64,000 bases of DNA, from positions 15,345 through 79,344 of IMG/VR virus record IMGVR_UViG_3300045996_001561, one strand, 5' to 3'. The position numbers and the translations under genes are program-made. The DNA is from a virus. Below, in pieces: positions 2,968-20,258 of the stretch; position 1 is the first letter of the stretch; each line of letters opens with the position of its first letter. Below the pieces are notes generated by a model, which saw only the letters and a list, made by a program, of their open reading frames with translations, did not search any database and had not been told where the DNA came from.

Positions 2968-2993
2968 GGATGCGTCGGAACGAGGACGCGGGG

Positions 2994-4532: not shown

Positions 4533-4837
4533 CCCTTGATCCCCATCCCTTCCTTGACCTTTTCGTAGACCATCACCTTGTACTCTTCGGTCAGGACGCG
4601 GGCATAGTCATGCGGGATGCCGCTGTCGATAAGCTCCTTGTAGAAGGCTCCCAGCATGCGCCCAAAGGTCACGCTGGCATCGATGGCAGCGACGGATCCG
4701 GGGTTGATGGGTGATGGGTTGGCGGCAATGGCCTGCTCGTAGGTCTTGTCGGGAACTCCCGGGACAGCATCGCTAATCAGGGGATCCTGTTTCTTCTGGG
4801 AGTCCTTCTGCATCCGATAGTCGAACCCTGCCGTCAT
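4529..4837 (-). CDS. Hypothetical protein
   Basis: Start MTAGFDYR, coupled to the upstream stop. Confidence 0.6.
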   Translation of the reverse strand: MTAGFDYRMQKDSQKKQDPLISDAVPGVPDKTYEQAIAANPSPINPGSVAAIDASVTFGRMLGAFYKELIDSGIPHDYARVLTEEYKVMVYEKVKEGMGIKG

Positions 4838-5211: not shown

Positions 5212-5349
5212 CACTCCCCCAAGCGCATGCGTAAAGCGGTGACAGGTGACGCCTGTGAAACATCCCCCGCCACCGCCCGTATCAATCTCGGGCCAATGCC
5301 CACGCCCCCGCTCCGCAGTGGCGCGTACACCGCGCCTCCGATTGTCCGT

Positions 5350-5378
5350 ACAATACCATGATGGCAGGGATTTGTCAA
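5350..5378 (-). promoter_or_regulatory. sigma70-type promoter
   Basis: TTGACA-N17(TGG)-TATTGT. Confidence 0.75.
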
Positions 5379-5465
5379 CCCCGCTTCTGGCGATCGACCC
5401 AGGTCATGATGCTGTCGTAGGATACGGCAAAGAGCCAGGAGGCGACCGCCAGTCCCAGGAGACCC

Positions 5466-5807
5466 CTACCAATCCAGAAGCCGACGCGCGACATCCTGCT
5501 CCCCATCCTTCCAGACCACATCCCGCTTCCCAATCACATCATCAGGTGGGGCGTTGGATGCCGGATTGGCGCGCGTGCGCGGCGGTGGGTTCGCCACCTT
5601 CTCGGCCCCAGCGGGTACCGGGGCCAGCGCCCGGACGTTCGGGTTCGGGTTCCGCTCGTAGACGACGGTGCCACAGGCACGACAGGTCACACGGAGAAGC
5701 CCGGGGGCGTTCTCAAACACCACCTTGGTGGGACACTTCGGGCATGGCAGGCTGTAGATCTGGCCCATCGTCGCTGCCCATCGTGCGTAAAACTGCTCCG
5801 TCGTCAC
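5466..5807 (-). CDS. Zinc-ribbon protein (Com-like CxxC..CxxC); start uncertain (5807 or 5768)
   Basis: LPCPKCPTKVVFENAPGLLRVTCRACGTVVY; overlaps the portal 3' end. Confidence 0.5.
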   Translation of the reverse strand: MTTEQFYARWAATMGQIYSLPCPKCPTKVVFENAPGLLRVTCRACGTVVYERNPNPNVRALAPVPAGAEKVANPPPRTRANPASNAPPDDVIGKRDVVWKDGEQDVARRLLDW

Positions 5808-7704: not shown

Positions 7705-7719
7705 CTGTTCTCTCCCCGA

Positions 7720-9237
7720 CTAGAGCCGCCCCCACTTGGCCGTAGCATACCCGGTCGAAATAACCCCAATCGGCTTGACCTCGTCGGGAGGCGGGTCGTA
7801 GAAGGCCAGGGCAATGGAATCCCCGAAGTCCGACGACCGGCCCGTGCGCTTGCGAAAGTCGTCTTTTGGCTCCACCACCGGCTGCGTGTGGCGACCGTCG
7901 ATGCGCCCCTGCAGCGCGCTCAGGTCGGCTTCGACCTCGGGCACGATGGTGCCAAAGATATCGCCGTTGCGGAACCGATCGGCCAGCAACCCGTAGGATT
8001 CGGAGCGTTGGTTGATGTATTTCTCCTTGTCGTGGGGCACTTTACTGAAGTTGACCCCCACCACCCGCAGGTTCATGCCGCGTTCCTTGACGACGTGGCG
8101 CATCACATCGTAGACCCCGACCCCCAATCCGATGATATCGACCTTGATGCGGGTCGTCTCGGGCTGGTGTTTGCTGATCAGATCGAGGGTTGCCCCAACG
8201 GTTTGCCACGATTCATTGCCCGGAACGGGCCAGGATCCGACCACTTGCGCCCCCGCACGCAGGGTCAGGGCGCTGCGATCGTTGCCATCCCGGGCCACAT
8301 CCAGCCCCGCTTCCTGGGGAAACCCGGCATACATGCCGTCATCGAAGCCCCGATTCTTGGCCGCTTCGATCATGGCCACCGAGATCATCACCCCTTCGGC
8401 ACTCACCCAGCGGGCATAGACCCGGGACTGGACGTAGGGTGACTCGATGCCGTACTTGCGGATGGTGTTGTTGACCCACTGCTCGGTGATCAGTCCCTTC
8501 CACCGCGTCTGCCCGGGCATGAGGAAGTTGGGGGTATCCTCCCAGGCATAGACCATCGTGTGATAGAGGTCGCGGGCACTGTGGTGGCTGTCATAGAAGG
8601 GGCCACTCGTCGATGTCGGGTTGCCGATCATGAGCATGCGCGAATTCTCGGTCGTCATCGCGGCCTGCAGACCGTCGATGAGCATCGTCGGCACCCCGGC
8701 CCCCTCGTCGATGATGACCAGAATGTTCTCGGCATGGAACCCCTGGGTCGGATCCGTCTCCTGATCGGACGGCTTGAACCCCATCGCGTACCAATCCTCG
8801 GCAATATCGTAGCGCGTGGTGAGGGGTTTGGCCCCCAGCAGCGGCACCTTGGCCCTGCGGTGGATCGCGCGGATGTTGCGCCACAGCACATGCTCGACCT
8901 GTCGTCCGGTGGGTGCGGTACTGAGGACGATGGAGTTTTCAAAGCAATGGAGGAAGGTGATGCCAATCGCGGCGGTAATGAAGGTTTTGCCGATCCCGTG
9001 GCAGGAGGCCACGGAGGTGTATTGATGCTCCCAGACGGCCCGGGTGATATCCTCCTGCCCCCACCACGGGTCGATCCCCAGCACTTCGCGCTGGAACTGC
9101 ACCGGATCCTTCGGGTAGTCCCGGTTGACGGCGATCTGACTGGCCGTGGCCGACCGGATGGCCATGACCATGCGATCCCCGACGCTCATGGGGGGAGCAA
9201 TCTCCGGGGAGCGCAGATCCTTGATGGTGGTTTTCAC
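7720..9237 (-). CDS. terL: Terminase large subunit
   Basis: Walker A SCHGIGKT, Walker B IIDEG, coupling motif IGNP, nuclease motifs GLDVARDGND and SSDFGDSIALA. Confidence 0.95.
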   Translation of the reverse strand: MKTTIKDLRSPEIAPPMSVGDRMVMAIRSATASQIAVNRDYPKDPVQFQREVLGIDPWWGQEDITRAVWEHQYTSVASCHGIGKTFITAAIGITFLHCFENSIVLSTAPTGRQVEHVLWRNIRAIHRRAKVPLLGAKPLTTRYDIAEDWYAMGFKPSDQETDPTQGFHAENILVIIDEGAGVPTMLIDGLQAAMTTENSRMLMIGNPTSTSGPFYDSHHSARDLYHTMVYAWEDTPNFLMPGQTRWKGLITEQWVNNTIRKYGIESPYVQSRVYARWVSAEGVMISVAMIEAAKNRGFDDGMYAGFPQEAGLDVARDGNDRSALTLRAGAQVVGSWPVPGNESWQTVGATLDLISKHQPETTRIKVDIIGLGVGVYDVMRHVVKERGMNLRVVGVNFSKVPHDKEKYINQRSESYGLLADRFRNGDIFGTIVPEVEADLSALQGRIDGRHTQPVVEPKDDFRKRTGRSSDFGDSIALAFYDPPPDEVKPIGVISTGYATAKWGRL

Positions 9238-9947
9238 GACGAGAGCGCCCCGGCATGCATGCTTGGTCGCTTCCGCAGGGCGGCGATGGCTCCATCCTCG
9301 ATGGTTTGCAGCGCCCGCTTATCGGTGACATTGGCCGCGACGATCTGCATGACCTCGGTGACGAACCCGACCGCCTGATCGGCACTGACCAGGGCGTTCA
9401 TATCCATGAGCCGCTTCTGCTCCTGGGCAATGAGCCGTCCCTGCATGTGCATGGCCTTATACAGATCGTCCCAGACGCGATAGTCCTGATCGGCATCACT
9501 CAACAACCGCCCCAGGTCGTCGATCGCCTCGGCATAGCCCACCTTATCCTGTTGCGCCTGGGCACGCTTGAGGGAGCGGAAGGTGTCCTTGACATCCTTC
9601 CACCGCGTCTGGGCCTCACCAGTCGTCAATCGTTGGATCAGTTGCTTGATGCGGGTCTGGACAAGAGCGATCTCGTCCCGAAGTTGCAGCAGTTCCGGAT
9701 CCGCGCGGGCCGTCTCAAAGGCGTCGATCAGGTCGTAGGGCAGCCCTTCGGAGTAGCCCTTGCCCTTGAAGTTGGGATGGGCAATCCCCTTCAGGGCTTT
9801 CCCTCCGTGCAGGCGACAGCGGCCGTTGCTCATGGCCGGTTGGTCGCACGGATCGCCGGTGCGTTTCTCCTTCGCGCCGCACTTGGGGACACGGTCAAAA
9901 TTGTTGACGACCGCTTTTTCTCGGGCATGGGGGATGGTGTCGGACAT
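9234..9947 (-). CDS. terS: Terminase small subunit-like protein (HGGxSTG domain)
   Basis: CGAK..TGDPC.QPAMSNGRCRLHGG plus helical C-terminus; coupled to terL. Confidence 0.75.
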   Translation of the reverse strand: MSDTIPHAREKAVVNNFDRVPKCGAKEKRTGDPCDQPAMSNGRCRLHGGKALKGIAHPNFKGKGYSEGLPYDLIDAFETARADPELLQLRDEIALVQTRIKQLIQRLTTGEAQTRWKDVKDTFRSLKRAQAQQDKVGYAEAIDDLGRLLSDADQDYRVWDDLYKAMHMQGRLIAQEQKRLMDMNALVSADQAVGFVTEVMQIVAANVTDKRALQTIEDGAIAALRKRPSMHAGALSS

Positions 9948-9952
9948 GTCCC

Positions 9953-11284
9953 TTAGCGCGGCCTTTCCGCCGTCTCTCCCGTGTACTGCTCCCAGCGGTC
10001 GACGACCACATCACAGTACCCCGGGCTAATCTCGATCCCGTAGCAGGTCAACCCTTCCTGCTCGGCCGCAATGAGCGTACTTCCGCTGCCCAGGAAGGGG
10101 TCATAGACGATATCGCCGGGTCGCCCGGAGAGGCTAAACGCATGCGCCATGAGGGCCACGGGCTTCATGGTCGGATGCTCCGGGGATTTCACGGGGCGGT
10201 CGAACTCCCAGAGCGTATCGTGGGTGCGATCGCCGTAGAACCAGTGGGCCTTCCCCGGTGACCACCCGTAAAAAATCGGTTCCCACCGCCAGTGATAGTC
10301 GACGCCCAGGGGCGCAAAGGTGGCATTATTCTTGACCCAGGCGAGGGTTTGGCGCAGCACCCCGACTTCGGTGAGCGCCAATGAAAAGCGCCACAGGTTA
10401 TTTCCTGACGGCCCGCAGACGTACCAGGGGGAGCCTTCCTCGGTCATCTCCAGGGCCACCCGAAAACTGTTCCGCAGCAGATCGGTGAGTGCCTCACCGT
10501 CGTCCTTCTCGTCACCGTCCAGATCGACGGTCACCCGGTTGCTGGAACCGCGCTGCAGCGAGTCCAGATACCGATTCTTCGCGGCCACATCCACCCCGTA
10601 GGGCGGATCCGTGAACACCAACCGCGCGTTCTCCAGTCCCTCGGTGCCCATGAAGAGCTTGTGGGCGACCTCGATATCCTCGGCATCGCCACAGATGATC
10701 CGGTGCCGCCCCAGCAGGATCAGATCCCCGGGCTGGGTGATCGCCGCGTCGTCGGCCTTCGGCGGCGGTGCTTCATCCTCGGCCTCGCCGTAGGGATTCT
10801 CGTAGGGGCCATCGCCGGTCAGATCGAACTCCGGGTACAGCACATCGGCCCTGACGCCCAGATCGACCAACTCGTCGGGGAACCAGTACTCGGCCACCGC
10901 CTGCACACCCTGGTCGGCATCAGCCTGGATGACTTCCTCGGCCCAGGCCAACCCCTCCTGCGCCGTCCGGTTATCGGCATAGGCCAACTCGCGGGCCTGC
11001 CCCAGCGGGTCGTCGAGATCGAGATCGGTACGTTTCACCGCGATGATGGTATCGCCGGTCGTCTCCACAATGGTGACCGGCAGCCCCATCTCCATCGCCG
11101 CCTCGGCCGTTTTATTCCCGGCGATAATGCGCCCCTCGCCATCGAGCAGGATGGAGCGACCGGCCCCATTGCGCTGCAGCGACTTCTCCAGCAAGTCCCG
11201 ACCGCGCTTCGTGCCCTTGTTCGCGTTGTGATCGTCCGGAGTAATCTCCGTCCAATCGGCCTCAACCACCCGCCGCACCGCCAT
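9953..11284 (-). CDS. ParB-like N-domain fused to N4/N6 DNA methyltransferase (beta class)
   Basis: N-terminal IIAGNKT and LAYADNR; FTDPPY, HPTMKP and YDPFLGSGSTLIAA motifs. Confidence 0.9.
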   Translation of the reverse strand: MAVRRVVEADWTEITPDDHNANKGTKRGRDLLEKSLQRNGAGRSILLDGEGRIIAGNKTAEAAMEMGLPVTIVETTGDTIIAVKRTDLDLDDPLGQARELAYADNRTAQEGLAWAEEVIQADADQGVQAVAEYWFPDELVDLGVRADVLYPEFDLTGDGPYENPYGEAEDEAPPPKADDAAITQPGDLILLGRHRIICGDAEDIEVAHKLFMGTEGLENARLVFTDPPYGVDVAAKNRYLDSLQRGSSNRVTVDLDGDEKDDGEALTDLLRNSFRVALEMTEEGSPWYVCGPSGNNLWRFSLALTEVGVLRQTLAWVKNNATFAPLGVDYHWRWEPIFYGWSPGKAHWFYGDRTHDTLWEFDRPVKSPEHPTMKPVALMAHAFSLSGRPGDIVYDPFLGSGSTLIAAEQEGLTCYGIEISPGYCDVVVDRWEQYTGETAERPR

Positions 11285-11735
11285 CCTCAGAACCTCCGTC
11301 GCGTGATATACCCATCACTCCACTGCAGCACTTCCCAGGAGCGGCCATCAGGATCGTTCGTGATATAGCGATGCCAGATAACCGGACGCTCCCGCTTTGG
11401 AAGGATGCCCCACTTGGGGAATGCGGGAAGCGTCGGGTTTTGGGTGACCCTCATTCGTGGCACGGTGTCCACCCATCCGTCGTGACCCAATCAGGAACCG
11501 GGCCATTGCCCCGCACCTCATTGACCTCATCGGATCCCGGGATGGGCTTGCACACCCACCAATCCCACGCCTGCTCCGGTTCGGTCGTGCGGATCTCGTC
11601 GTCCATCGTTCCTCCTCTGCCGCGCTCCGTAGTCTAACAGGTGTCAGAAATTTCCCGAAATTCAGGGAAAGTGGGGAATGCCGACCTACTCACCCCGCAC
11701 GGAGCGATGCCGTCGTCCCTAAAAATGCCCATATT

Positions 11736-12329
11736 TCACCCCGAAGTGGGGCGATAGTCGATGGTTTTCGTTCCCTTGGAGCAGTTACAGGACAGGCACA
11801 GCGGTTGAATATTGCCGATATCATTCCTTCCCTTCCGGGCTAGCGGCACCACATGATCCGGTGTCAGGGGCTTGCGCTCCCCACAGGCAAGGCACCGATA
11901 CCCATACCGCGCCTGCAGTTCCTCCCATTCCCGGGCCGAGTAACTCCCCCCATTCTTCCGCAACCGCGCCCGACGCCGGGCCGATCGCATCTTGGAGTCC
12001 CGCCGCTCGTCCTCTTTCCGCTTCACCACGGCACAATCCCGGCACCACTTCGGTCGACTCCCCTGCCGAATCACCCACGAAAATTCCGCCCCACACCGCC
12101 GACATGCCACCATTTTTTCCGGATCCCGCTTCGCCTTCCTCCGCTTCTTGAACCGCCGCGCCGCCTCTCGCCGTAACGCATATCCCCGCTCCGTAAACGC
12201 CCACGCCCCCGAGGACTCCCGATCCTTCTTCCTGGCACAGCCCACACAATAGATCGCCCGATAGTGCCGATCCGCTATATCCACCCCACAGACCAAGCAC
12301 CGCCGCTCCCGTACCTGCTTCTTCGTCAT
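11736..12329 (-). CDS. HNH endonuclease with N-terminal zinc fingers
   Basis: CLACG..LTPDHVVPLARKGRNDIGNIQPLCLSCNCSK; upstream of the packaging genes. Confidence 0.9.
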   Translation of the reverse strand: MTKKQVRERRCLVCGVDIADRHYRAIYCVGCARKKDRESSGAWAFTERGYALRREAARRFKKRRKAKRDPEKMVACRRCGAEFSWVIRQGSRPKWCRDCAVVKRKEDERRDSKMRSARRRARLRKNGGSYSAREWEELQARYGYRCLACGERKPLTPDHVVPLARKGRNDIGNIQPLCLSCNCSKGTKTIDYRPTSG

Positions 12330-12485
12330 CCTCTGTTCTCCGCGTAGGGGTCGGAAGGTGTCAAGGGGGTCATCAGCATTGTCCCGAAATGTGGGCCGGA
12401 TTCATACGAAGGCTCCGCTGTAGGACACGTGTTCTACCCCCGCCGCGAAACACCCGTCTGGCCTACCGCGCGGCGCTACCCGGCG

Positions 12486-12527
12486 CTACCCCCCTACCGC
12501 GCGGCAAAGCTACGGGTAGGGGGGTAG
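12486..12527 (-). terminator. Hairpin after gene 12536-12787
   Basis: CTACCCCCCTACC...GGTAGGGGGGTAG inverted repeat. Confidence 0.5.
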
Positions 12528-12535
12528 GGGGTACC

Positions 12536-12787
12536 CTAGGACTGGCACATGCGTTCTAGTACCGCTACCCGCCTAGCCGCCGCGCGTACGTCGTCCGCTA
12601 GGTAGCTAGGTACCGCTACCCTATCCGCGCGGTAGTACCCGACTTCTAGCCGTAGGTCAGCTAGGGCGCTATAGGCATCGGCTAGCCGATCTTCTAGGCC
12701 GCGTAGCCGCGTACCGCGCGGTACCCAAGCGGTACCTTCATATTGGGCTACCGTACTACCGCTAGCCGCTACCATATAGCTATCCAC
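12536..12787 (-). CDS. Small early protein with extreme codon bias
   Basis: Own promoter, leader hairpin and SD GGAGGAAACC; GTG start; all 8 Leu are CTA. Confidence 0.7.
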   Translation of the reverse strand: MDSYMVAASGSTVAQYEGTAWVPRGTRLRGLEDRLADAYSALADLRLEVGYYRADRVAVPSYLADDVRAAARRVAVLERMCQS

Positions 12788-12834
12788 TGGTTTCCTCCTA
12801 CCGCTACGGCTAGCTTCCGTACTAGCCTATAGCT

Positions 12835-12863
12835 ACTATACCATACCCGTAGGCGATTGTCAA
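12835..12863 (-). promoter_or_regulatory. sigma70-type early promoter
   Basis: TTGACA-N17(TGG)-TATAGT. Confidence 0.85.
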
Positions 12864-12867
12864 TAGG

Positions 12868-13038
12868 CTAGTACGCTACCCTATAGGCGCTACCCGCGCC
12901 TAGTGGCCAGTACCCCGTATAGGTACCCCAAGCGCTACGGTACTGTACCCGTACCCCGGCTACCCGCCTAGCCGCTAGCCGCCGTACCCGCGCGCCGCGC
13001 GATAGGTACCCCGTACCCCGGCCGCCTAGCCTAGTCAT
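12868..13038 (-). CDS. 56-aa basic protein (below the ORF-track cutoff)
   Basis: MTRLGGRGTGYLSRGARVRRLAARRVAGVRVQYRSAWGTYTGYWPLGAGSAYRVAY, filling the space between promoters 13112 and 12863. Confidence 0.5.
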   Translation of the reverse strand: MTRLGGRGTGYLSRGARVRRLAARRVAGVRVQYRSAWGTYTGYWPLGAGSAYRVAY

Positions 13039-13083
13039 ACCCTACCCCCTACCGCTACCGTACCTACCTACCTAACTACCGCT

Positions 13084-13112
13084 ACTATAGCATACCCGTA
13101 CGCCATTGTCAA
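13084..13112 (-). promoter_or_regulatory. sigma70-type early promoter
   Basis: TTGACA-N17(TGC)-TATAGT. Confidence 0.85.
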
Positions 13113-13202
13113 CTACCTACGCGCGGGGTAGCTACGGTACTAGGCTATAGCGGCGCGCGGGTAGGTATACGGCTAGTACGGTACTACGGCTATACCTACC
13201 CC

Positions 13203-13231
13203 TTGACATACCCGTACGGCTATGGTAGTAT
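13203..13231 (+). promoter_or_regulatory. sigma70-type early promoter
   Basis: TTGACA-N17(TGG)-TAGTAT. Confidence 0.85.
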
Positions 13232-13305
13232 AGCGGTACTAGGGTAGTACGGGGTAGCGGGTACCCCGGCCTAGCGGGTAGGAAAGGGGGTAGCCTATAG
13301 GGGGG

Positions 13306-13334
13306 TTGACAATCACGGTACGCTATGGTAGGGT
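13306..13334 (+). promoter_or_regulatory. sigma70-type early promoter
   Basis: TTGACA-N17(TGG)-TAGGGT. Confidence 0.75.
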
Positions 13335-13398
13335 ATACCTAGAGCGGGGTACGGGTAGCGCGGTACGGAACGCGCGGTACCCCGTACGGAGGAAACCA

Positions 13399-13734
13399 AT
13401 GCACGGCGTGACAACTGAAGAGCGGTGTTCCTGCGGCGAGTACTCACTCGCTGGGGGTGGGACGATCTGCGCCTCGGAAGCTCGGGCAATCGAGGAGGAG
13501 GCGGTTCGGAGCCACTATGAGGTCGCCTATGACGAGGTCATGCCATTCCTCGTCGAGATGTACCGAGGCGTGGTGGAAGAGGATCGCTCGGCCAACACCT
13601 TGATGGCGGTCGTTAGAGCAGCCCAGCTTGCGCTCATGAACCCCGACATCACGGTCGATTGGGTCAAGGAGCAGTACGAGGACGTTGAGTTCGGAAATCG
13701 CGCGCAAAAGGCGCTCGATCCTCGGGTGGTCTAG
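13399..13734 (+). CDS. Small early protein
   Basis: SD CGGAGGAAACC; start MHGVTTEERCSC. Confidence 0.7.
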   Translation: MHGVTTEERCSCGEYSLAGGGTICASEARAIEEEAVRSHYEVAYDEVMPFLVEMYRGVVEEDRSANTLMAVVRAAQLALMNPDITVDWVKEQYEDVEFGNRAQKALDPRVV

Positions 13735-13761
13735 ACAAGCGCCCACAATTCAGGCTCGGTA

Positions 13762-13826
13762 GGGGTACCCTCGGTACCCCGCTGGGTCGTGAGAAACGTA
13801 CAGGGGTACCCTCCTTCGGGTACCCC
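13762..13826. terminator. Paired hairpins between convergent genes
   Basis: GGGGTACC-ctc-GGTACCCC (13762-13780) and GGGGTACCC-tccttc-GGGTACCCC (13803-13826). Confidence 0.6.
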
Positions 13827-13846
13827 CAGGAATCCGAACGTTCGTG

Positions 13847-14110
13847 CTACGGCACGATCTCCCACGCCGCGTCCTCGGGGTCGTAGGAAAACGCCTCGCC
13901 GTTGGCGCAGATGGCCGTGGCTGACCCATCCTCAAAGACTCGGAGGACTTCGCAATCCGGGGTTAAAAGACTCTGAACGTAGCGTTCGTGCGCGTTCAGA
14001 AATCGCGCCATCGCGTAGTCCGGCTCGGGCGGAACGTGGGCCGACGCGCTCCCCGTACCCAAAACCGCCGCAATCCCGAATGCCGCTACCGCGTACCGTA
14101 CCTTCCGCAT
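13847..14110 (-). CDS. Small secreted early protein
   Basis: Sec-type signal MRKVRYAVAAFGIAAVLGTGSASA; own promoter. Confidence 0.7.
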   Translation of the reverse strand: MRKVRYAVAAFGIAAVLGTGSASAHVPPEPDYAMARFLNAHERYVQSLLTPDCEVLRVFEDGSATAICANGEAFSYDPEDAAWEIVP

Positions 14111-14149
14111 CGCCTACCCCTTTCGTACGTACCTTTTTCAACTAGGGGT

Positions 14150-14178
14150 ACTATAGCATACCCGGCCTAGTTTGTCAA
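14150..14178 (-). promoter_or_regulatory. sigma70-type early promoter
   Basis: TTGACA-N17(TGC)-TATAGT. Confidence 0.85.
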
Positions 14179-14215
14179 GGGGTACCTATAGGGAGAATAG
14201 CCTACCCCCTACCCC

Positions 14216-14244
14216 TTGACAAACTGGTAGGGGTATGGTACTAT
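14216..14244 (+). promoter_or_regulatory. sigma70-type early promoter
   Basis: TTGACA-N17(TGG)-TACTAT. Confidence 0.85.
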
Positions 14245-14312
14245 AGCCGTAGTTGAAAAAGGGTAGCGGGTAGCGGTAGCGGTACCGTACGCGCTACCCG
14301 GAGGGTACGAAG

Positions 14313-14594
14313 GTGGATTGCCCCACAATGGAAGAGGAAGCGCGGGAAGCGGTAGGTATCGCTTTCTGGCGGGATCACGGCGACGACGTCGAGGCATTGA
14401 CCTCCGCGATCGAAACCGGGAAGATCGAGGCTCGGACGTGCTTCGACGCCATCCTCGCTCGGAAATCCTGGCGAAACGCGGTCGATATCGATTACGCGGC
14501 CGAGGCGGAAGTCGAGTACAACTTGGCCGAGTTGTGGTGGGATCTGCAGCATCCAGATCGGGAATTCCTCGACGCCATGCCCCTGGTCGGATAA
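14313..14594 (+). CDS. Small acidic early protein
   Basis: Own promoter and SD GGAGG; strongly acidic. Confidence 0.7.
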   Translation: MDCPTMEEEAREAVGIAFWRDHGDDVEALTSAIETGKIEARTCFDAILARKSWRNAVDIDYAAEAEVEYNLAELWWDLQHPDREFLDAMPLVG

Positions 14595-14614
14595 TCCGTA
14601 CAACGCACCGAATC

Positions 14615-14689
14615 GCTCGGGTTCCCTCGGGAATCCGGGCTTTTCGGGGTGACAGGTGTTGGGAGTCCTCGGGATTTCCCAAGGACTCC
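14615..14689. terminator. Paired hairpins between convergent genes
   Basis: GCTCGGGTTCC..GGAATCCGGGC followed by TTTT, and GGGAGTCCT..AGGACTCCC. Confidence 0.6.
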
Positions 14690-14697
14690 CCGTGGGT

Positions 14698-14964
14698 TCA
14701 AAACCGCTCGGGTAGGTTTCCGTAGCGTTCAAGGAGGAAGATCTGATCGTCCAGATCCGGCTCCTTTGGCGTGGGATCGGCTCGGCGGCTCGGGTAGATT
14801 CGCTCAAATTCGTCCAGATCGGGGTCGTCTCCGTACAAGGCTCGGAGCGTCTCCCAAATCCCCACCGCTCGACCGAATTCGTAGGGGTTGGCGTGGTTCA
14901 TCTCCACGTTCGCGCGTCGGATCAGGTTTCCGACCTTTTCGCGCTGGGTGATCGGTATCGCCAT
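14698..14964 (-). CDS. Small early protein
   Basis: SD AAGGAGGAG; start MAIPITQREK. Confidence 0.7.
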   Translation of the reverse strand: MAIPITQREKVGNLIRRANVEMNHANPYEFGRAVGIWETLRALYGDDPDLDEFERIYPSRRADPTPKEPDLDDQIFLLERYGNLPERF

Positions 14965-15001
14965 CGGCTCCTCCTTTTTCCGTACCTTCCAACGTGGGGG
15001 T

Positions 15002-15030
15002 ATAGTACCATACCCGTATGCTTTTGTCAA
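15002..15030 (-). promoter_or_regulatory. sigma70-type early promoter
   Basis: TTGACA-N17(TGG)-TACTAT. Confidence 0.85.
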
Positions 15031-15067
15031 GGGGTAGGGGTGGGGTATTTTGCTACGGCTATACCCC

Positions 15068-15096
15068 TTGACAAACTAGTAGGGGTATGCTATAGT
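15068..15096 (+). promoter_or_regulatory. sigma70-type early promoter
   Basis: TTGACA-N17(TGC)-TATAGT. Confidence 0.85.
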
Positions 15097-15152
15097 AGCC
15101 ACAGTTGGATCGGGGTACGGAACCCAGATCCGGGTAGACGAAGGAGGAAACG

Positions 15153-15428
15153 GTGAAATTGGATAAGGCGAAGAAGGAATTGGTCAAGTCGTTGCTGGCG
15201 GAATCCGCGCAAGCGGTCGAGGATGCCAGAAAAGCCGACCGGGAAGCCAAGACCGGCTCCAAGACCCGATTTGAGCGGGTTCGGCTCCAAGGCGTCGAAA
15301 CCGGGATCACCACGGCGCTGATCGCGATCTTTGGCGAGGATGCGGTGGCGCTCGTCGAGGACGAGATCACCACGGAGAAGGAGAAGGCGGAACTTGCCGC
15401 GCAGGAGCCGGTTGAGGACGCCGCCTAG
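15153..15428 (+). CDS. Small helical early protein
   Basis: SD GGAGGAAAC; GTG start. Confidence 0.75.
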   Translation: MKLDKAKKELVKSLLAESAQAVEDARKADREAKTGSKTRFERVRLQGVETGITTALIAIFGEDAVALVEDEITTEKEKAELAAQEPVEDAA

Positions 15429-15434
15429 ACCCTC

Positions 15435-15515
15435 GGGGGTACCCTCGGAAGCGGGGGTACCCTCGTCTGCGCCCAGAACGCGGGCAAAGAGCCACTCCCC
15501 AGGCATCCTGGGGAG
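15435..15515. terminator. Paired hairpins between convergent genes
   Basis: GGGGGTACCCTCG-gaag-CGGGGGTACCCTC and CTCCCCAGG-cat-CCTGGGGAG. Confidence 0.55.
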
Positions 15516-15530
15516 GCTCGGGGTCGTGGC

Positions 15531-15683
15531 CTAGAGCGGGAATCGGTAGGATCGACCCATACGCACCGATGCAAGATAGGATCGACCAACGTTGGCGCGG
15601 CGTGCGGCTCGGTACGACCAGATGCCAGCAACTCGCTTGCGGTGGTAGCGGTAGATCTTCCGCACGATCCAGGGGGTTTCCAT
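15531..15683 (-). CDS. 50-aa basic early protein
   Basis: SD TCGGAGGAAACC; start METPWIVRK. Confidence 0.6.
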   Translation of the reverse strand: METPWIVRKIYRYHRKRVAGIWSYRAARRANVGRSYLASVRMGRSYRFPL

Positions 15684-15735
15684 AGGGTTTCCTCCGATCT
15701 TTGCCGGGGTGCCGTACCCCGATTCCGTAGTTCCT

Positions 15736-15764
15736 ATACTACCATACCCGTAGGAAAGTGTCAA
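15736..15764 (-). promoter_or_regulatory. sigma70-type early promoter
   Basis: TTGACA-N17(TGG)-TAGTAT. Confidence 0.85.
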
Positions 15765-15779
15765 GGGGTAGAATAGGGG

Positions 15780-15808
15780 TTGACAAACGTACGCGGGTAT
15801 GGTAGTAT
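15780..15808 (+). promoter_or_regulatory. sigma70-type early promoter
   Basis: TTGACA-N17(TGG)-TAGTAT. Confidence 0.85.
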
Positions 15809-15855
15809 TCACCTACGTTGAAGGGGGTACGGAAACCCCGAAGGAGGAATCGCCC

Positions 15856-16110
15856 ATGAAGCGCGAGGATTACGAGTTCCTGATCGAGAAAGCCGAGAAG
15901 GTGGTACGGGATCACCAAACGGCCGTGGACGTGGTCGAAGGCGTCGATAATTCGCGGGAATCGGTCATGGCCATGAAGCTGGCCGAGGCGCGGATGGAGG
16001 GATTTTTCGACGGAATCTTCGCCGCCTCGCGGGATTCCTGCCTCGCGGGATTTGTGCGCCAAGATGCCAAGTTTCGGATGGATCGGGATCGGATTCTCGA
16101 TCTGAGCTAG
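15856..16110 (+). CDS. Small early protein
   Basis: SD AAGGAGGAA; start MKREDYEF. Confidence 0.7.
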   Translation: MKREDYEFLIEKAEKVVRDHQTAVDVVEGVDNSRESVMAMKLAEARMEGFFDGIFAASRDSCLAGFVRQDAKFRMDRDRILDLS

Positions 16111-16128
16111 CACCGCTCGGATCAGCAC

Positions 16129-16208
16129 GGAAACCGTGGGGAGATCCCCACGGTTTCCTGCCTCCCTGGAAAGGCACGACGAAGGGTACCCCGAGGATGG
16201 GGTACCCT
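16129..16208. terminator. Paired hairpins between convergent genes
   Basis: GGAAACCGTGGGGA..TCCCCACGGTTTCC and AGGGTACCCC-gaggat-GGGGTACCCT. Confidence 0.6.
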
Positions 16209-16222
16209 CGGTGGCGTGGTTT

Positions 16223-16510
16223 CTACCAGCCTTCCTCCCACTCTCGCTCGGTCGTGCAGCCCACGATCGCGCATGGCTCGACGTAGGAGTAGCGACCAAA
16301 GGCGATGCCGCCTTCGATCCCGACCATCTCTAGCTTGCGGACGTTGCCGACCAGCCGCAGATCCGTGGGATCGGTGCCTTGCGCGCGGTAGTCCGCGTAG
16401 TGATCCTTTTCCTCTTTCAGGAAGGCTTGGGCGTCCTTCTTGGTGCGGAAGGTTCCCTGGTATTCGTCGTTGACGCCGTCCCCTAATCCCGCGTACCCGT
16501 GGTAATGCAT
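16223..16510 (-). CDS. Small early protein
   Basis: Own promoter; SD AAAGGAG. Confidence 0.7.
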   Translation of the reverse strand: MHYHGYAGLGDGVNDEYQGTFRTKKDAQAFLKEEKDHYADYRAQGTDPTDLRLVGNVRKLEMVGIEGGIAFGRYSYVEPCAIVGCTTEREWEEGW

Positions 16511-16545
16511 GCGCGTCTCCTTTCTGCGACCTTCAACGTGGGGGT

Positions 16546-16574
16546 ACTATAGCATACGGGTACGCCATTGTCAA
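16546..16574 (-). promoter_or_regulatory. sigma70-type early promoter
   Basis: TTGACA-N17(TGC)-TATAGT. Confidence 0.85.
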
Positions 16575-16577
16575 GTC

Positions 16578-16606
16578 TTGACAATCGGGGTAGGGTATGG
16601 TAGTAT
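16578..16606 (+). promoter_or_regulatory. sigma70-type early promoter
   Basis: TTGACA-N17(TGG)-TAGTAT; -35 is only 3 bp from the divergent -35. Confidence 0.85.
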
Positions 16607-16653
16607 ATAAGCGTGGTAGGGAAACGGAACCCTACGGATCACGGGAGGATGCG

Positions 16654-16887
16654 ATGAAAGTTGATCCGATCTATGCGTACGCGCTTGATGGGCATCTGGA
16701 GGATTGCCAGGGGAATCACCTGGGAACCTATCGGGTGATCTCCCGGTGGCGCGTGGGATCGCGCTACATGGGCTGGTATACGTGGCACGCCATCCGGGCG
16801 AGGATCCGGGGTCTCGATGGGGAGATGTGGGCGCGGTACAACGTCGACAACGGCTCGGCCGTCGCGCTGCGACCGGTGCGATCATGA
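16654..16887 (+). CDS. Small early protein
   Basis: SD GGGAGG; start MKVDPIY. Confidence 0.7.
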   Translation: MKVDPIYAYALDGHLEDCQGNHLGTYRVISRWRVGSRYMGWYTWHAIRARIRGLDGEMWARYNVDNGSAVALRPVRS

Positions 16888-17078
16888 GTCTCACGCCAAA
16901 CCCGACGTTCGATCCGAAAACGGGGGAGGATCTGCCTCCCCACGTCCGCTACGATGGCTGGTTCCATACGTGCGGCGACTGTGGGAATGATGATGCGGTG
17001 TTCATCGTCACCCTCGACGGCGAGGATCACTTCTCCTGTCGATCATGCGTCTATGCGCACTATCTCGCTATCGCGTAG
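16884..17078 (+). CDS. Small zinc-finger protein
   Basis: CGDC..CRSC; ATGA-coupled. Confidence 0.6.
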   Translation: MSLTPNPTFDPKTGEDLPPHVRYDGWFHTCGDCGNDDAVFIVTLDGEDHFSCRSCVYAHYLAIA

Positions 17079-17112
17079 GAGGCTCGGCGCTTCGCACCAG
17101 AAGGAGGCTCGG

Positions 17113-17367
17113 ATGGCTCGGTATTGCCGGGATCGGTACGAGGGTCAGCTTCGTGCCAACATCTACGGTGCCACCAAATACGTGGTGGCTGATGTGGAAA
17201 CCGGGAGGATCGTCGCGGAACTCGACGAGAACGATCAGCTCCTGACGCATGAGAGCGCCCGATCCCTCGCCGCAGGGATGAATGCGATCATCTGGCAGCA
17301 GCGTCGACGTCATGGGCGATGCGCGGGGCATCCCAGGACTCGGGATCGGGGTCAGTCCTCGGTCTAA
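17113..17367 (+). CDS. Small early protein
   Basis: SD AAGGAGG; start MARYCRDR. Confidence 0.65.
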   Translation: MARYCRDRYEGQLRANIYGATKYVVADVETGRIVAELDENDQLLTHESARSLAAGMNAIIWQQRRRHGRCAGHPRTRDRGQSSV

Positions 17368-17380
17368 CCCTCGGGAACAC

Positions 17381-17412
17381 GGATCACCCCCTGGAATTCC
17401 AGGGGGTGATCC
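17381..17412. terminator. Perfect 32-bp palindrome between convergent genes
   Basis: GGATCACCCCCTGGAATTCCAGGGGGTGATCC. Confidence 0.65.
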
Positions 17413-17421
17413 TCGGTGCGG

Positions 17422-17652
17422 CTAGCTGATCCGGGTGTTCCAGAGATTGTCCTTGATCTTCTGCAATCGGTAGGATCGCTTGAGGGCGCTCGGGCGATGC
17501 TTCCCGTTGGCCATCAGATCGTTCTCGCACCGCTCGATCTCGGCGTCGATGCGTCCGACCTCGTCGCGCAACGCTTCGACTAAGGCGTCCACGCGCGACT
17601 GGATCGCATCCTCCGTCAGATTCCGTAGCGGGATCTTGTACCCGGCATCCAT
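17422..17652 (-). CDS. Small coiled-coil early protein
   Basis: SD CGGAGGAA; start MDAGYKIP. Confidence 0.7.
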   Translation of the reverse strand: MDAGYKIPLRNLTEDAIQSRVDALVEALRDEVGRIDAEIERCENDLMANGKHRPSALKRSYRLQKIKDNLWNTRIS

Positions 17653-17701
17653 CCTGATTCCTCCGTTTCCTTTCCGGGGTTCCGTACCCCAACGTGCGTC
17701 A

Positions 17702-17730
17702 ATACTACCATACTGGTACCCTATTGTCAA
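17702..17730 (-). promoter_or_regulatory. sigma70-type early promoter
   Basis: TTGACA-N17(TGG)-TAGTAT. Confidence 0.85.
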
Positions 17731-17733
17731 GGC

Positions 17734-17762
17734 TTGACAAACTACCCCGACTATGGTAGTAT
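17734..17762 (+). promoter_or_regulatory. sigma70-type early promoter
   Basis: TTGACA-N17(TGG)-TAGTAT. Confidence 0.85.
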
Positions 17763-17797
17763 AGAGGCAGTTGAGGATGGTACGGAAAGGAGGCAGC

Positions 17798-18163
17798 ATG
17801 ATCCACGGGAACGAGAACCCCGGCAAGGTGGCCGAGGCGATTGCGGAGGCGTTGCGCACCGCATCAGAGCATGGGGAGTTCGTCGATACGGACGACGAGC
17901 CACCCCGGATCGAGGTCGATCATGGGTTTCAACCCTTCCTCACGATCCGGTTTCGGAATGGCGCGGAATTCCAACTGACTCCGGTCAGATCGGCATGGCC
18001 GTCTGAAGGCTCGGCCCAATTCCTCGGCTGCGATCAGTGCGGCGAGACGGTGTGCGAATGCTGCGAACGCTGCGGTCGACCACCGGGGTACGAGCATGAT
18101 CGCTCGGGGTGCGTCGAGTACATCGCGCCGGAAGGTGATGAGCGGTATCGGGAGGGATCATGA
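17798..18163 (+). CDS. Early protein with Cys-rich C-terminus
   Basis: SD AAAGGAGG; CDQC..CECCERC. Confidence 0.7.
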   Translation: MIHGNENPGKVAEAIAEALRTASEHGEFVDTDDEPPRIEVDHGFQPFLTIRFRNGAEFQLTPVRSAWPSEGSAQFLGCDQCGETVCECCERCGRPPGYEHDRSGCVEYIAPEGDERYREGS

Positions 18164-18360
18164 CCGCATTGGAGGCGATTCGTCGGATCACGGACATCGT
18201 TGAGGCGTGGGAGAACAACCACGATCCCAGCGCCCAGAACGATATCGATACCCTCTACGAGATCCTCGGCATCGCGGGGGAGGTCGAGGAAACCGATCCC
18301 TACGCCCTGACTCCCTCGGAGGAAGATCGCTGGCGGAAAGATCAGGCCCATCCCGCGTAG
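18160..18360 (+). CDS. Small acidic protein
   Basis: ATGA-coupled; SD GGAGG. Confidence 0.65.
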   Translation: MTALEAIRRITDIVEAWENNHDPSAQNDIDTLYEILGIAGEVEETDPYALTPSEEDRWRKDQAHPA

Positions 18361-18435
18361 GACGGATCGGGATCTCCCCCATACCCTCGGTGACATCTGT
18401 CACGCGGGGGTCGGGGTGGTGAAAGGAGAACGATC

Positions 18436-18687
18436 ATGGATCGCTCGGAATGGGTCAGGATCAAGTACCGAGAACTCGATCCCACCGTGGATACCTTCGC
18501 GGATATCCGGGATCACGTTCGGGCATCGCTGCAGGAACAGGTTGACTTCTGGAAGGGTGACACGATCCAGGGTCGGGCCGATGTGGCGCGCCGGAATGCC
18601 CTCGGAGTACCTCCCCTGAATCCCGCGCGGCGTCCAATGGAACGGTGGGCGATCTGCGCGCTCTTTGTCGCGGCCGGGAAGCTGTAG
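18436..18687 (+). CDS. Small early protein
   Basis: SD AAAGGAG. Confidence 0.65.
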   Translation: MDRSEWVRIKYRELDPTVDTFADIRDHVRASLQEQVDFWKGDTIQGRADVARRNALGVPPLNPARRPMERWAICALFVAAGKL

Positions 18688-18690
18688 GGG

Positions 18691-18719
18691 TTGACAATAC
18701 CCCGCGTATATGGTACTAT
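18691..18719 (+). promoter_or_regulatory. sigma70-type early promoter
   Basis: TTGACA-N17(TGG)-TACTAT. Confidence 0.85.
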
Positions 18720-18769
18720 ACAACCAGTCAAGTGGGGGAACGGAAGCCCTCGGACGGAAGGAGGAAACA

Positions 18770-19225
18770 GTGATCAGGCCAGGAATGAAGATCACCCTAG
18801 AGAGTCTGGAAGAGATCGGGCCGTTCGCATGGCCGGGAGGGTACGTCAATACCTTCATCGACCGGGATGGCAGCATCCTGTGCTTCGATTGCGCCAAGAA
18901 GGATCTGCAGGACGGAAACCCGTTCGGATCGATCGCGTACGCGGGGTACGAGGAACGCGACCCCGAGGATGGCGACGTGATTTGCGATGGATGCGGACAG
19001 GAGGTCGATCCGGCGATTCGCGGTCGAGACGACGATCCCGCCACCGCCTGCCGCTACCGCGTACGCGGGAAGGATGTTGCCGAGTTTCACACGAACGTGT
19101 GGGACGAGGTGATCACCGAGGCTCGGAAGCTGCGCGGTGAGGGGATCAGAAACATCGCCGTCGAGGAACGGGATCACGGGCCGGGGTTTGGGCCGGGACA
19201 TTGGGTGGAGGTGATCTGGTCGTGA
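18770..19225 (+). CDS. Zinc-binding phage protein (AWPGGY..LCxxC..CxxC family)
   Basis: FAWPGGY..DGSILCFDCA..VICDGCG; SD GGAGGAAAC. Confidence 0.7.
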   Translation: MIRPGMKITLESLEEIGPFAWPGGYVNTFIDRDGSILCFDCAKKDLQDGNPFGSIAYAGYEERDPEDGDVICDGCGQEVDPAIRGRDDDPATACRYRVRGKDVAEFHTNVWDEVITEARKLRGEGIRNIAVEERDHGPGFGPGHWVEVIWS

Positions 19226-19533
19226 ACGCATGGACAGGTCTGCGGCTCTCGGATGCGCGGCGACAACTGGTCGGCGTCAAATCCCAGATCGATCGCTCGA
19301 TCCAAGCGGAGGACGACGACAACTGGCTCCGCGATGCGCCCCAAGATCCCGAAGCGTACGTGTTGCTCAATGAGATCGTGGGTCTCGTCAACACCCTCGA
19401 TCAGAAGCTGCTTGACCTCGTCTTGAGAAAGGATCACGATGCTGTTCCAGAAGAAGAAGCCAGCCAAGAAGGGTCGGTCGCGCACATCATCGACCCGACC
19501 AGCCCCAGCGCGGAGGAACTCTGGGGTCAGTAA
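19222..19533 (+). CDS. Hypothetical protein
   Basis: GTGA-coupled; SD GGAGGTG. Confidence 0.6.
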   Translation: MNAWTGLRLSDARRQLVGVKSQIDRSIQAEDDDNWLRDAPQDPEAYVLLNEIVGLVNTLDQKLLDLVLRKDHDAVPEEEASQEGSVAHIIDPTSPSAEELWGQ

Positions 19534-20038
19534 GATCCCTCGGGGGTACTACGAGAACTTTGGCACCGAGTACCACAACACGCGCGGGATGGGGTCAACC
19601 TATATCGCGGCGGCAGGATCGGGATGTCTGGGGGTCTCATGGAAGTTCTTTCTGATGGTGATGCTGATCGGGATTGTGATTGCCGCCTTCTGAGGGAGGC
19701 CCAGGCCCAGATCAGCACGGCCTGGATCGACGGCGACACGGACACCCTCGTCCAGTGGCTGGGCGCACTCGATCGCTCGATCCAGGCGAACGATCCACTG
19801 CAGAACGGTGCGGCCTTCCTGATCGAGTACACCGTGGCAGGGTTGGAGATCCTCCTGTTTGATCCCACGGTGCATGCATTCTATTGCACGGCACTCCTAC
19901 CCCAATTCTGGCCCCAACGCCCCACAGAGGCCACGGAGCGCGTCCACAGCGGGGGTTCCGTGGATGACGACCGGCAACGTCGTGCCGACGTGCTGCGGTT
20001 TCGCATCTTCGGGCCGTGGGAAGGGATGCCGGGGGACA

Positions 20039-20067
20039 TTGACAAATACGCGGGGGTGAGCTACACT
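20039..20067 (+). promoter_or_regulatory. Promoter of the candidate small RNA
   Basis: TTGACA-N17-TACACT; the only copy lacking the TG extended -10. Confidence 0.75.
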
Positions 20068-20073
20068 ACGCAG

Positions 20074-20206
20074 GCAACTAAAGGGAGCTTCCTCTAAGCT
20101 CCTGGGGGGTCGACACCGGCGATGCCGGAACCACTCGATCCCCAAAGGTTTCCTCCGAGTTGCACCTTCCGTGTCGGGAACCCCGGTCGCAAGGCTGGGG
20201 TTCTTG
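20074..20206 (+). ncRNA. Candidate structured antisense small RNA (~133 nt)
   Basis: Own promoter and no SD/ORF. Helices: GCAACT/AGTTGC, GGAGCTT/AAGCTCC, GGGGGTCGA/TCGATCCCC with inner CCGGC/GCCGG, and a 13-bp terminal stem with GCAA tetraloop. G-U pairs work only on the + strand. Confidence 0.75.
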
Positions 20207-20258
20207 GCGTCCCGATCACCCCCTGTGTATGTATGGGAAACTGGTTTCCATAATACCC

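Follow-up and report, generated by a model that had tools for sequence, protein, structure and literature searches.

An alternating array of two-way promoter hubs and small orphan genes, probably the immediate-early region of an uncultured soil siphophage

A stretch of about 6 kb in the IMG/VR virus record IMGVR_UViG_3300045996_001561, an uncultured soil siphophage, carries a dense array of sigma70-like promoters, most of them in back-to-back pairs, that drive 17 small genes. We consider it likely that this array is the immediate-early accessory-gene region of a novel phage, driven by the RNA polymerase of the host, and it is best read as belonging to a genome-wide regulon in which promoter, leader hairpin and ribosome site recur together. 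The DNA that was analysed, here called the window, is 64,000 nucleotides (nt) long and corresponds to bases 15345-79344 of the 79,344-bp record, which is rated 99% complete; it has 62% GC overall (0.59-0.65 along the whole window). Positions are those of the window, and the features are collected in Table 1.

The density of promoters is the first line of evidence. A consensus scan of positions 11500-20000 found 17 promoter-like sites against 3.2 (standard deviation (sd) 1.9) in shuffled sequences, 14 of them scoring at least 10 of 12 with the TG extension. The strict pattern TTGACA-N14-TGn-TAnnnT gave 25 matches in the window against 0.00 expected (100 shuffles) and none when read backwards as a control; the whole record has no others, since all of its 25 matches fall inside the window. 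Fifteen of these, which read as near-consensus promoters for the primary sigma factor of the host with a 17-bp spacer and an extended -10, lie at 12835-18719, arranged as six bidirectional hubs and three single promoters, and the strand order of the 25 promoters along the window is ----++-+-+-+-+-++++++++++. The initial annotation had described six divergent pairs with -35 boxes as close as 3 bp; all six were recovered where it had placed them, with gaps between the -35 hexamers of 90, 37, 37, 15, 3 and 3 bp (hubs 5 and 6 being the closest), and three promoters could be added to its list, namely 12863(-), 13306(+, tandem to 13203) and 18691(+). The upstream flank of the array promoters is TACCCC or TAGGGG. 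Hub 3 is 86-87% identical to inverted hub 2 over 43-46 nt, so that it looks like an inverted copy, and at the hubs whose -35 boxes are 3 bp apart two polymerases probably compete. No hairpin stands upstream of co-directional promoters such as 18691. Along the rightward series of such promoters, the stop codons at 18685, 30429 and 39888 are TAG placed 3 nt ahead of the -35 box (TAGGGG-TTGACA), and these promoters are therefore fused to the gene ends, with no terminator between.

The second line of evidence is the position of the array, exactly at the point where the late leftward arm and the early rightward arm diverge. In family scans, the leftward block contains an HNH endonuclease, a ParB-methyltransferase fusion, the large terminase (TerL), portal, major head protein, major tail protein and tape measure, and it runs on over the record ends into tail and lysis genes. 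The rightward block (18.7-44.5 kb) contains a ParB-like protein, an O-like initiator, a primase-helicase and a helix-turn-helix (HTH) regulator (HTH_3/HTH_31). When the called genes were scanned with Pfam and PHROGs, neither an RNA or DNA polymerase nor an integrase was recognised. In the mechanism that we propose, host RNA polymerase would fire all units upon DNA entry, and the 17 small, mostly acidic proteins would condition the cell, whether by takeover, anti-defence or exclusion. Early regions of phages hold most of the unknown genes that disarm bacteria, and the array supplies 17 such candidates, each with its own promoter, leader and terminator.

The genes, of 50-121 amino acids (aa), were called with a codon log-odds caller trained on long genes together with ribosome sites, and form 13 gene-proximal units, of which ten hold a single gene and three hold three genes each, which agrees with the earlier description of one to three small genes per promoter. 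Strong ribosome sites stand ahead of the gene-proximal starts, and the codon caller itself selected 15 of the 17 frames. A frame that it missed, 12536-12787, is nevertheless open for 97 codons amid 47 UAG on its strand. Frame 12868-13038 (56 codons) lacks a ribosome site and is unlikely to be a gene; since it was not counted as one, P13112 and P13203 become upstream tandem promoters. These data bear on a different explanation of the array, in which its 15 consensus promoters would mainly capture host RNA polymerase and sigma factor, with the short genes being secondary. Having 15 near-perfect promoters in 6 kb with very short transcription units would suit such a sink, but the strong ribosome sites and the 15 of 17 frames picked by the codon caller speak against it, as does the conservation of at least one protein family in other metagenomes; moreover, one injected genome would offer few sites compared with the host's own promoters. 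We regard this explanation as very unlikely.

The proteins are indeed mostly orphans, as had been noted from the sequence, with 19 of 20 tested proteins lacking a family match. None of the 20 scored above the curated Pfam cut-off and none of 17 had a PADLOC match at E<1e-3, while PHROGs gave one weak match of 20 under E 1e-3 (18770-19225 to phrog_18452, 8e-6). Consistent with the latter, the N-terminal part of 18770-19225 resembles small phage proteins in the ESM Atlas, which otherwise gave leads under 0.9 only. The proposal of a host-takeover or anti-defence island thus stands as regards its layout, which is that of an early or takeover region at the divergence of the arms, and is left without a matching family of such function in Pfam (0 of 20) or PADLOC (0 of 17). 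Two array proteins compared with 5.8 billion proteins returned only themselves. In an exhaustive profile search, the 14313 protein had two remote homologues (44% and 41% identity, E 1.7e-6 and 3.2e-4), both on short metagenome contigs, of 2,150 bp (JGI, P0003) and 1,199 bp (ENA, P0004); its GTG start is supported because these homologues conserve residues before the first ATG. The structure model of this protein is unusable (pLDDT 49.9), and that of the 18160 protein is a three-helix bundle (pLDDT 80.7) with no Foldseek match in PDB at E<=0.001. The initial annotation had put forward these two acidic proteins as candidate DNA mimics or as anti-CRISPR or anti-restriction factors; both lack a match in Pfam and PHROGs, and the results speak neither in favour of such a role nor against it. 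The array is mildly enriched in acidic proteins, with a median isoelectric point (pI) of 4.8 versus 6.1 for the other small proteins of the phage. Protein 16884-17078 has four Cys as CxxC...CxxC, and protein 17798-18163 has seven Cys. Paralogy among the array proteins was considered and rejected, the best E value being 0.002 and to a non-array protein.

The third line of evidence is a shared leader. When all 25 promoter regions were aligned, conservation extended beyond the -10 box, and 15 leader hairpins could be collected genome-wide, 14 of them within 70 nt of a promoter and 8 in the array. Their stems vary (GGGG/CCCC, GAAGGG/CCCTTC, GGGAGG/CCTCCC, GTCAGG/CCTGAC, GTAGGG/CCCTAC, GCGCG/CGCGC) and the loop keeps A-C-G-G-A-A, with all six bases, C included, near-invariant. 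The ACGGAA motif lies 14-20 nt past the -10 box, which places the beginning of the hairpin a few bases at most from the predicted 5' end (the predicted transcription start is near a GTTGRR box), and its 3' foot is 1-12 nt from the GGAGGAA ribosome site. Among the gene-proximal array leaders, 8 of 13 have the hairpin, and two more have single-stranded ACGGAA touching the ribosome site. In the model-fitted alignment 70% of cells pair versus 55% in shuffles, and the covariation is 0.395 versus 0.163, neither value being reached by any of 500 shuffles; both sides change in five of the six pairs. A covariance model run over the whole genome with filters off returned the 15 seeds and one other match in the seed range (17.1 bits, in the tape-measure gene). 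A census of both strands of the window counted 41 copies of ACGGAA, with 17 in the 25 leaders of seventy nt, which make up about 1.4% of sequence space; the motif sits in stems of at least 4 bp in 13 of these 17, against 3 of the 24 copies elsewhere. The same promoter-leader module also heads replication genes.

In addition, at 34996-35040 (+) an ACGGAA hairpin (35001) is followed by GAAGGAGGAAAC and an ATG at 35036, within the 3' part of frame 34672-35127 and with no upstream promoter, which suggests an overlapping or mis-called gene start at 35036. Because this copy precedes an internal start without a promoter, the leader element appears to be tied to the translation start rather than to the promoter.

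As for the function of the leader, the 5' hairpin may stabilise the transcripts, and the invariant loop with the extended ribosome site may be the handle for a common post-transcriptional switch, whose best candidate would be an antisense RNA at 20075-20210, the alternative being an RNA-binding protein. A TTGACA-17-TACACT site, which has no TG extension, overlaps the end of gene 19639-20097, and downstream of it stand GGTTTCCTCC, complementary to the extended ribosome site, and CTTCCGT, complementary to the loop, and then a terminator-like hairpin. Both complementary stretches are unpaired in the predicted fold of the candidate RNA (z -3.65). The predicted duplex with promoter-proximal starts has a mean of -27.0 (n=19) versus -22.8 for other starts (n=89; Mann-Whitney p=3e-4), and -22.6 (sd 1.7) was obtained with shuffled RNA. 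We therefore propose, with moderate support from this modeling, that the RNA at 20075-20210 is the antisense partner of the leaders; the stretch 20040-20210 could equally well be an untranslated 3' end belonging to the last operon of the array. A bolder version, in which the array would be a recombinase-free rack of orphan genes between quasi-palindromic two-way hubs and two-way terminators, every unit staying expressed and insulated after inversion, exchange or deletion of units, and the whole regulon of 25 promoters would be shut off by one RNA from the 3' end of the last array operon through pairing with loop and ribosome site, seems to us rather doubtful.

The leader hairpin could instead be the operator of a protein, either of CsrA type or a translational regulator of the phage, and not the target of an antisense RNA. 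CsrA/Rsm-type sites combine a GGA that is presented by a hairpin loop with another GGA at the ribosome site, and here a loop GGA lies 1-12 nt from a GGA-containing ribosome site, which is a fitting geometry; the copy at 35001, at an internal start without promoter, also points to translation. Against it, the six near-invariant loop bases are more than CsrA is known to require, and no RNA-binding family was found among the scanned phage proteins. We see the protein operator as a tentative possibility. For either partner, the array offers a natural system in which to ask whether many transcripts can be governed by one RNA or protein through a shared 5' hairpin, and also whether divergent promoters with -35 boxes 3 bp apart share polymerase or compete for it.

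The units are closed off from each other. Convergent genes had been reported to be separated by usually two GC hairpins, several on a shared core, and the five convergent gaps bear this out: all five fold into GC hairpins with stems of 8-14 bp, the z values for the + strand ranging from -3.4 to -5.7; at least two hairpins are present in four of the gaps, and in three the hairpins are based on GGGTACCC, which has 9 of its 10 window sites at 12-18 kb. On the left side, the hairpin 12478..12535 is likely a terminator that insulates the array from the late operon of HNH and terminase genes, and no sigma70-like promoter of the array type was found between it and the HNH gene; because of this hairpin of about 20 bp after the last leftward gene and the lack of an intervening promoter, the array appears insulated from the virion operon. 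In the proposed mechanism, the GC hairpins would close each unit and keep early transcription out of the neighbours and out of the late virion operon.

Such self-contained units recall morons, which are autonomous promoter-gene-terminator insertions, and the array could be of this type, expressed from a resident, possibly plasmid-like prophage and changing its host, and would then not consist of lytic early genes. A strong promoter and a hairpin terminator belong to every unit, one product has a signal-peptide-like N-terminus, and the genome encodes ParB-like proteins and the HTH_3/HTH_31 regulator. However, the Pfam and PHROGs scans of called genes gave no integrase or clear immunity repressor, and the presence of the same promoter-leader module before replication genes favours a lytic programme. 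A moron-type array is, in our judgement, unlikely.

Table 1. Positions of the promoters, leader hairpins, genes, gaps and neighbouring features of the array in the window (SD, Shine-Dalgarno sequence; the roles of hairpins and small RNA are predicted).
Feature	Positions	Strand	Remarks
TA-punctuated island	12440..13400		139 TA in 961 nt, about 4x genome density
Long GC hairpin directly after stop of gene 12787-12536	12478..12535	-	about 20-bp stem, minimum free energy fold
Gene, 83 aa, GTG start, SD AGGAGGAAACC	12536..12787	-	rare GTA/CTA codons
Leader hairpin GGCTAGT-acggaa-GCTAGCC	12807..12829	-	
P12863(-)	12835..12863	-	TTGACA-17-TATAGT with TG
Hub 1: P13112(-) + P13203(+)	13084..13231		-35 boxes 90 bp apart; both upstream tandem promoters
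P13306(+)	13306..13334	+	tandem to P13203
Leader hairpin GCGCG-gtacggaa-CGCGC	13356..13378	+	
Gene, 111 aa, acidic (pI 4.5)	13399..13734	+	
Gap, two strong hairpins, GGGTACCC cores	13735..13846		z -3.36 on +
Gene, 87 aa	13847..14110	-	N-terminal signal-peptide-like segment MRKVRYAVAAFGIAAVLGTGSASA, judged by eye
Hub 2: P14178(-) + P14216(+)	14150..14244		37 bp apart; halves 81% complementary over 53 nt
Gene, 93 aa, acidic (pI 4.2), GTG start	14313..14594	+	
Gap, two strong hairpins	14595..14697		z -4.84 / -5.08
Gene, 88 aa	14698..14964	-	leader with single-stranded ACGGAA 2 nt from SD
Hub 3: P15030(-) + P15068(+)	15002..15096		37 bp apart
Leader hairpin, loop tACGGAa	15108..15130	+	
Gene, 91 aa	15153..15428	+	
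Gap, three hairpins, first on GGGGGTACCC	15429..15530		z -4.86
Gene, 50 aa, very basic (pI 11.8)	15531..15683	-	weakest coding call in array, score 14.2
Leader hairpin GGGG-tacggca-CCCC	15702..15724	-	variant loop
Hub 4: P15764(-) + P15780(+)	15736..15808		15 bp apart
Leader hairpin GGGGT-acggaa-ACCCC	15820..15842	+	
Gene, 84 aa	15856..16110	+	
Gap, two hairpins of 13 and 10 bp	16111..16222		z -5.68 / -7.09
Gene, 95 aa	16223..16510	-	
Hub 5: P16574(-) + P16578(+)	16546..16606		3 bp apart; palindrome ATTGTCAAG-T-CTTGACAAT
Leader hairpin GTAGGG-aaacggaa-CCCTAC	16615..16637	+	
Three-gene unit	16654..17367	+	16654-16887 (77 aa), 16884-17078 (64 aa), 17113-17367 (84 aa)
Gap, one 14-bp hairpin	17368..17421		z -4.53 / -4.85
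Gene, 76 aa	17422..17652	-	
Leader hairpin TTGGGG-tacggaa-CCCCGG	17672..17694	-	
Hub 6: P17730(-) + P17734(+)	17702..17762		-35 boxes 3 bp apart
Three-gene unit	17798..18687	+	17798-18163 (121 aa), 18160-18360 (66 aa, pI 4.2), 18436-18687 (83 aa)
P18691(+)	18691..18719	+	first of co-directional rightward series; stop codon of upstream gene 3 nt before -35 box
Leader hairpin TGGGGG-aacggaag-CCCTCG	18731..18753	+	then second ACGGAA abutting SD
Three-gene unit, beyond the range of the initial annotation	18770..20097	+	18770-19225 (151 aa), 19222-19533, 19639-20097
Candidate small RNA or 3' untranslated region	20040..20210	+	unpaired GGUUUCCUCC (anti-SD) and CUUCCGU (anti-loop), then terminator-like hairpin

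In the parts of the published descriptions drawn on here, the array resembles the PeSL cassettes and the SPO1 module, its strictly alternating and self-insulated layout being unusual. The closest concept that has been described is that of the PeSL cassettes of the T4-type phages RB49 and phi1, in which a sigma70-like promoter is combined with a stem-loop, ribosome site and start codon ahead of orphan genes; these cassettes occur about 50 times per genome and recombine between copies, with shuffling having been shown (Arbiol et al. 2010, PMC2839356). Both systems have repeated modules with a strong sigma70-like promoter (a predicted one in the array), stem-loop, ribosome site and start codon; the promoter part is matched in the array by 15 hits of the strict pattern. 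Further likenesses are the position of the modules directly upstream of orphan genes, in a region that is plastic in the PeSL phages, stem-loops that stop (in the array, would stop) spill-over into late genes, and repeats that are proposed as recombination points. However, the PeSL stem-loop, as described there, lies in or beside the promoter and terminates upstream transcription, and in this respect the array differs, as its terminator-like hairpins stand at the 3' ends of units. Unlike in PeSL, the promoter-linked hairpin of the array lies past the predicted transcription start and has an invariant loop; the regions upstream of PeSL are AT-rich, whereas the array flank is as given above; and alternating back-to-back pairs, a feature of the array, do not appear in that portion of the PeSL account. 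The PeSL genomes are T4-type, and the array genome is unrelated and not T4-type. If it is true that units move between phages, the PeSL idea of mobile regulatory cassettes would extend beyond T4-type phages.

The module with which the Bacillus phage SPO1 takes over its host has 26 small early genes in 12.4 kb, in short operons running in both directions, and eight of its products attenuate growth, several acting in host shut-off (PMC6873191). As far as the consulted part of that paper goes, both are clusters of small genes with promoters and ribosome sites typical of high expression (predicted ones in the array), yet strict alternation and a shared leader hairpin are array features absent from the SPO1 description. 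No sequence relation between the two was found, and none of 20 array proteins matched PHROGs of known takeover function.

The nearest parallel to the leader, as a conserved motif that surrounds the ribosome site, comes from Cluster K mycobacteriophages, where the 13-bp motif GGGATAGGAGCCC of the start-associated sequence (SAS) precedes start codons by 3-7 bp (Pope et al. 2011, PMC3203893); about half of the copies have an upstream inverted repeat (ESAS), for which an RNA hairpin is little supported (PMC3203893). According to the sections of that paper used here, SAS and the array leader are both conserved asymmetric motifs that contain the ribosome site and are longer than the 16S rRNA pairing, both stand a few bases before starts (for SAS, of many non-structural genes), and for both an RNA or protein partner, of phage or host, is proposed. 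The array leader differs in that its stems covary around an invariant loop, and SAS, as described there, is not tied to promoters. In the window, GGGATAGGAGCCC at up to 2 mismatches gave 2 matches (22207 and 58365) against 2.86 expected, and none in the array.

A similar architecture was met in a marine metagenome contig (L261, positions 1-10029), which has 12 promoters of the extended -10 kind within 10 kb, three divergent pairs whose -35 boxes are separated by 11-12 bp, and a 5' hairpin in most leaders, followed in 6 of 12 by TTGACAAC and a ribosome site. It shares the logic of the array, that is, promoter, 5' hairpin, conserved leader motif and ribosome site; it differs in that its motif TTGACAAC comes after the hairpin, its loops are unconserved and it has fewer pairs, whereas the array has the invariant loop. 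No protein similarity to the phage under study was found in this contig, and we regard it, on sequence grounds, as an independent analogue of the architecture and not as a relative. More generally, promoter-pattern scans of public viral and metagenome contigs were used to compare layouts in 354 loci (1.5 Mb) among the matches listed, which are not a census. At least five such promoters occur in 35 of these 354 loci, so that dense arrays of such promoters recur in phages; the promoters in the other dense arrays are mostly one-directional, and a divergent pair closer than 100 bp occurs once in 13 loci and three times in one (L261), with none having more. All of the matches listed are unrelated, mostly low-GC phages. 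A literature phrase search on back-to-back promoters and phage early genes had no match, which is no evidence of novelty.

Searches for relatives gave little. The array has no megablast match in cultured phages; the identity of primase-helicase, TerL and portal to proteins of IMG/VR or cultured phages does not exceed 32%; for the amidase no match in phages was obtained, TerL has none in metagenome contigs, and the 14313 homologue P0003 was not found in viral contigs. Two matches of 20-25 residues, from a scan of genome contigs with the alignment of the three proteins, were rejected as spurious, as their contigs had no other similarity. The stretch itself is present in DNA runs of three soil or terrestrial studies (2017, 2021, 2025), with shares of its words of 0.27, 0.26, 0.14 and 0.06, and one of these runs may be the source sample; no RNA run is listed for it. 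The contigs from soil are 150-400 nt long and mostly identical to the window, with 0-3 differences apart from one contig of run X2, and where they span hub 1, hub 5 and one terminator junction, these are unaltered; in run X2, the hub 5 junction and the convergent gap 16111..16222 are unchanged.

These data touch on whether cassettes are exchanged by recombination between repeated promoters, as the initial annotation had inferred. The promoter-leader units form repeats of 31-65 nt with 60-87% identity in both orientations, and such repeats would let units be swapped, inverted or lost with expression being kept. In one contig of depth 2.9, position 14965 is followed by 15689-15746, which in turn runs into 15082, with sides of 42-43 nt in repeat sequences, which may be a hint that the promoter-leader before gene 14964 was replaced by a P15764-like one. 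Three other joints (21263 to 14368, 17566 to 19726 and 18290 to 19690) were rejected as coming from other organisms, with unrelated flanks or many mismatches. Small changes were seen besides: AGGAGGCTCGG stands twice ahead of gene 17113 (17077-17112), the ribosome-site segment at 17076 has a further 25-nt tandem duplication in one soil run, and one contig of run X2 has substitutions and small deletions clustered at 15389-15416, at the C-terminal end of gene 15153-15428.

Several points weigh against reading the array as an exchangeable, host-driven early region with a common leader switch. The early timing that we infer comes from promoter type and position only; the 'host consensus' is assumed from the general sigma70 pattern; and two promoters of the same type stand inside the late arm (3715 and 5378), which shows that early genes do not have this type to themselves. 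As regards the leader, 5 of 13 gene-proximal leaders have no hairpin; sliding the alignment by one column still pairs 67.8%, nearly equal to the 70% of the fitted one, because the loop length differs among copies; and the duplex test of the candidate RNA is modest, at about 2.6 sd from shuffles. As regards exchange, no relative with genomic context was found in any collection searched, and the 14313 protein is the sole array protein with homologues (two, 41-44% identity). At positions outside the search pattern, the array units are 45% identical versus 37-39% in other comparisons, and the longest exact stretches shared between units are about 15-16 nt (judged by eye), which makes the promoter units a poor substrate for homologous recombination, as judged from their sequences. 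Since the soil contigs are near-identical, the same phage recurs, with no cassette flux seen at this resolution.

Around hub 1, the array overlaps an island rich in TA steps, to which about three quarters of its A and T bases belong. In it CTAG, GTAC, GGTA and TAGG are enriched 13- to 33-fold, and GGUAG/GGUAC abound on the sense strand whichever way transcription runs. Gene 12787-12536 has its rare GTA and CTA codons because the bias of the island overrides codon choice. We considered a DNA or RNA protein-binding array, a field of targets for the adjacent ParB-methyltransferase, a site that serves packaging or an origin; RNAs of the island as structured RNAs were rejected, since their folding is not above shuffles (z -1.0 and -1.6). 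The origin would explain hub 1 in another way, as a transcription-activated replication origin at 12440-13400 with divergent G-rich transcripts that would prime replication or open the DNA, the other hubs being incidental. At 12-14 kb the cumulative GC skew reaches its minimum, the strands switch at about 13113-13200, where the sense strands to either side are rich in G, and the TA density is well above that of the genome. Nevertheless, the skew change is confounded with the change of coding strand, the GC of the island is still 0.61 with no AT-rich unwinding element, no family of iterons is prominent, the gene of the O-like initiator lies at a distance of 14 kb, and hubs 2-6 would be left unexplained. 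Therefore, an origin at this place appears quite improbable to us.

Some observations concern the rest of the record. No tRNAs were found, and no Rfam family reached its gathering score, the array having only two snoRNA rows at chance level. The tape measure protein has 2,650 aa (locus L130, 1560-9512, minus strand), a length that implies an exceptionally long tail. Finally, the first and last approximately 150 bases of the record overlap with few mismatches (L130 1-200; window 63800-64000), which suggests a circular or permuted assembly and not true ends.

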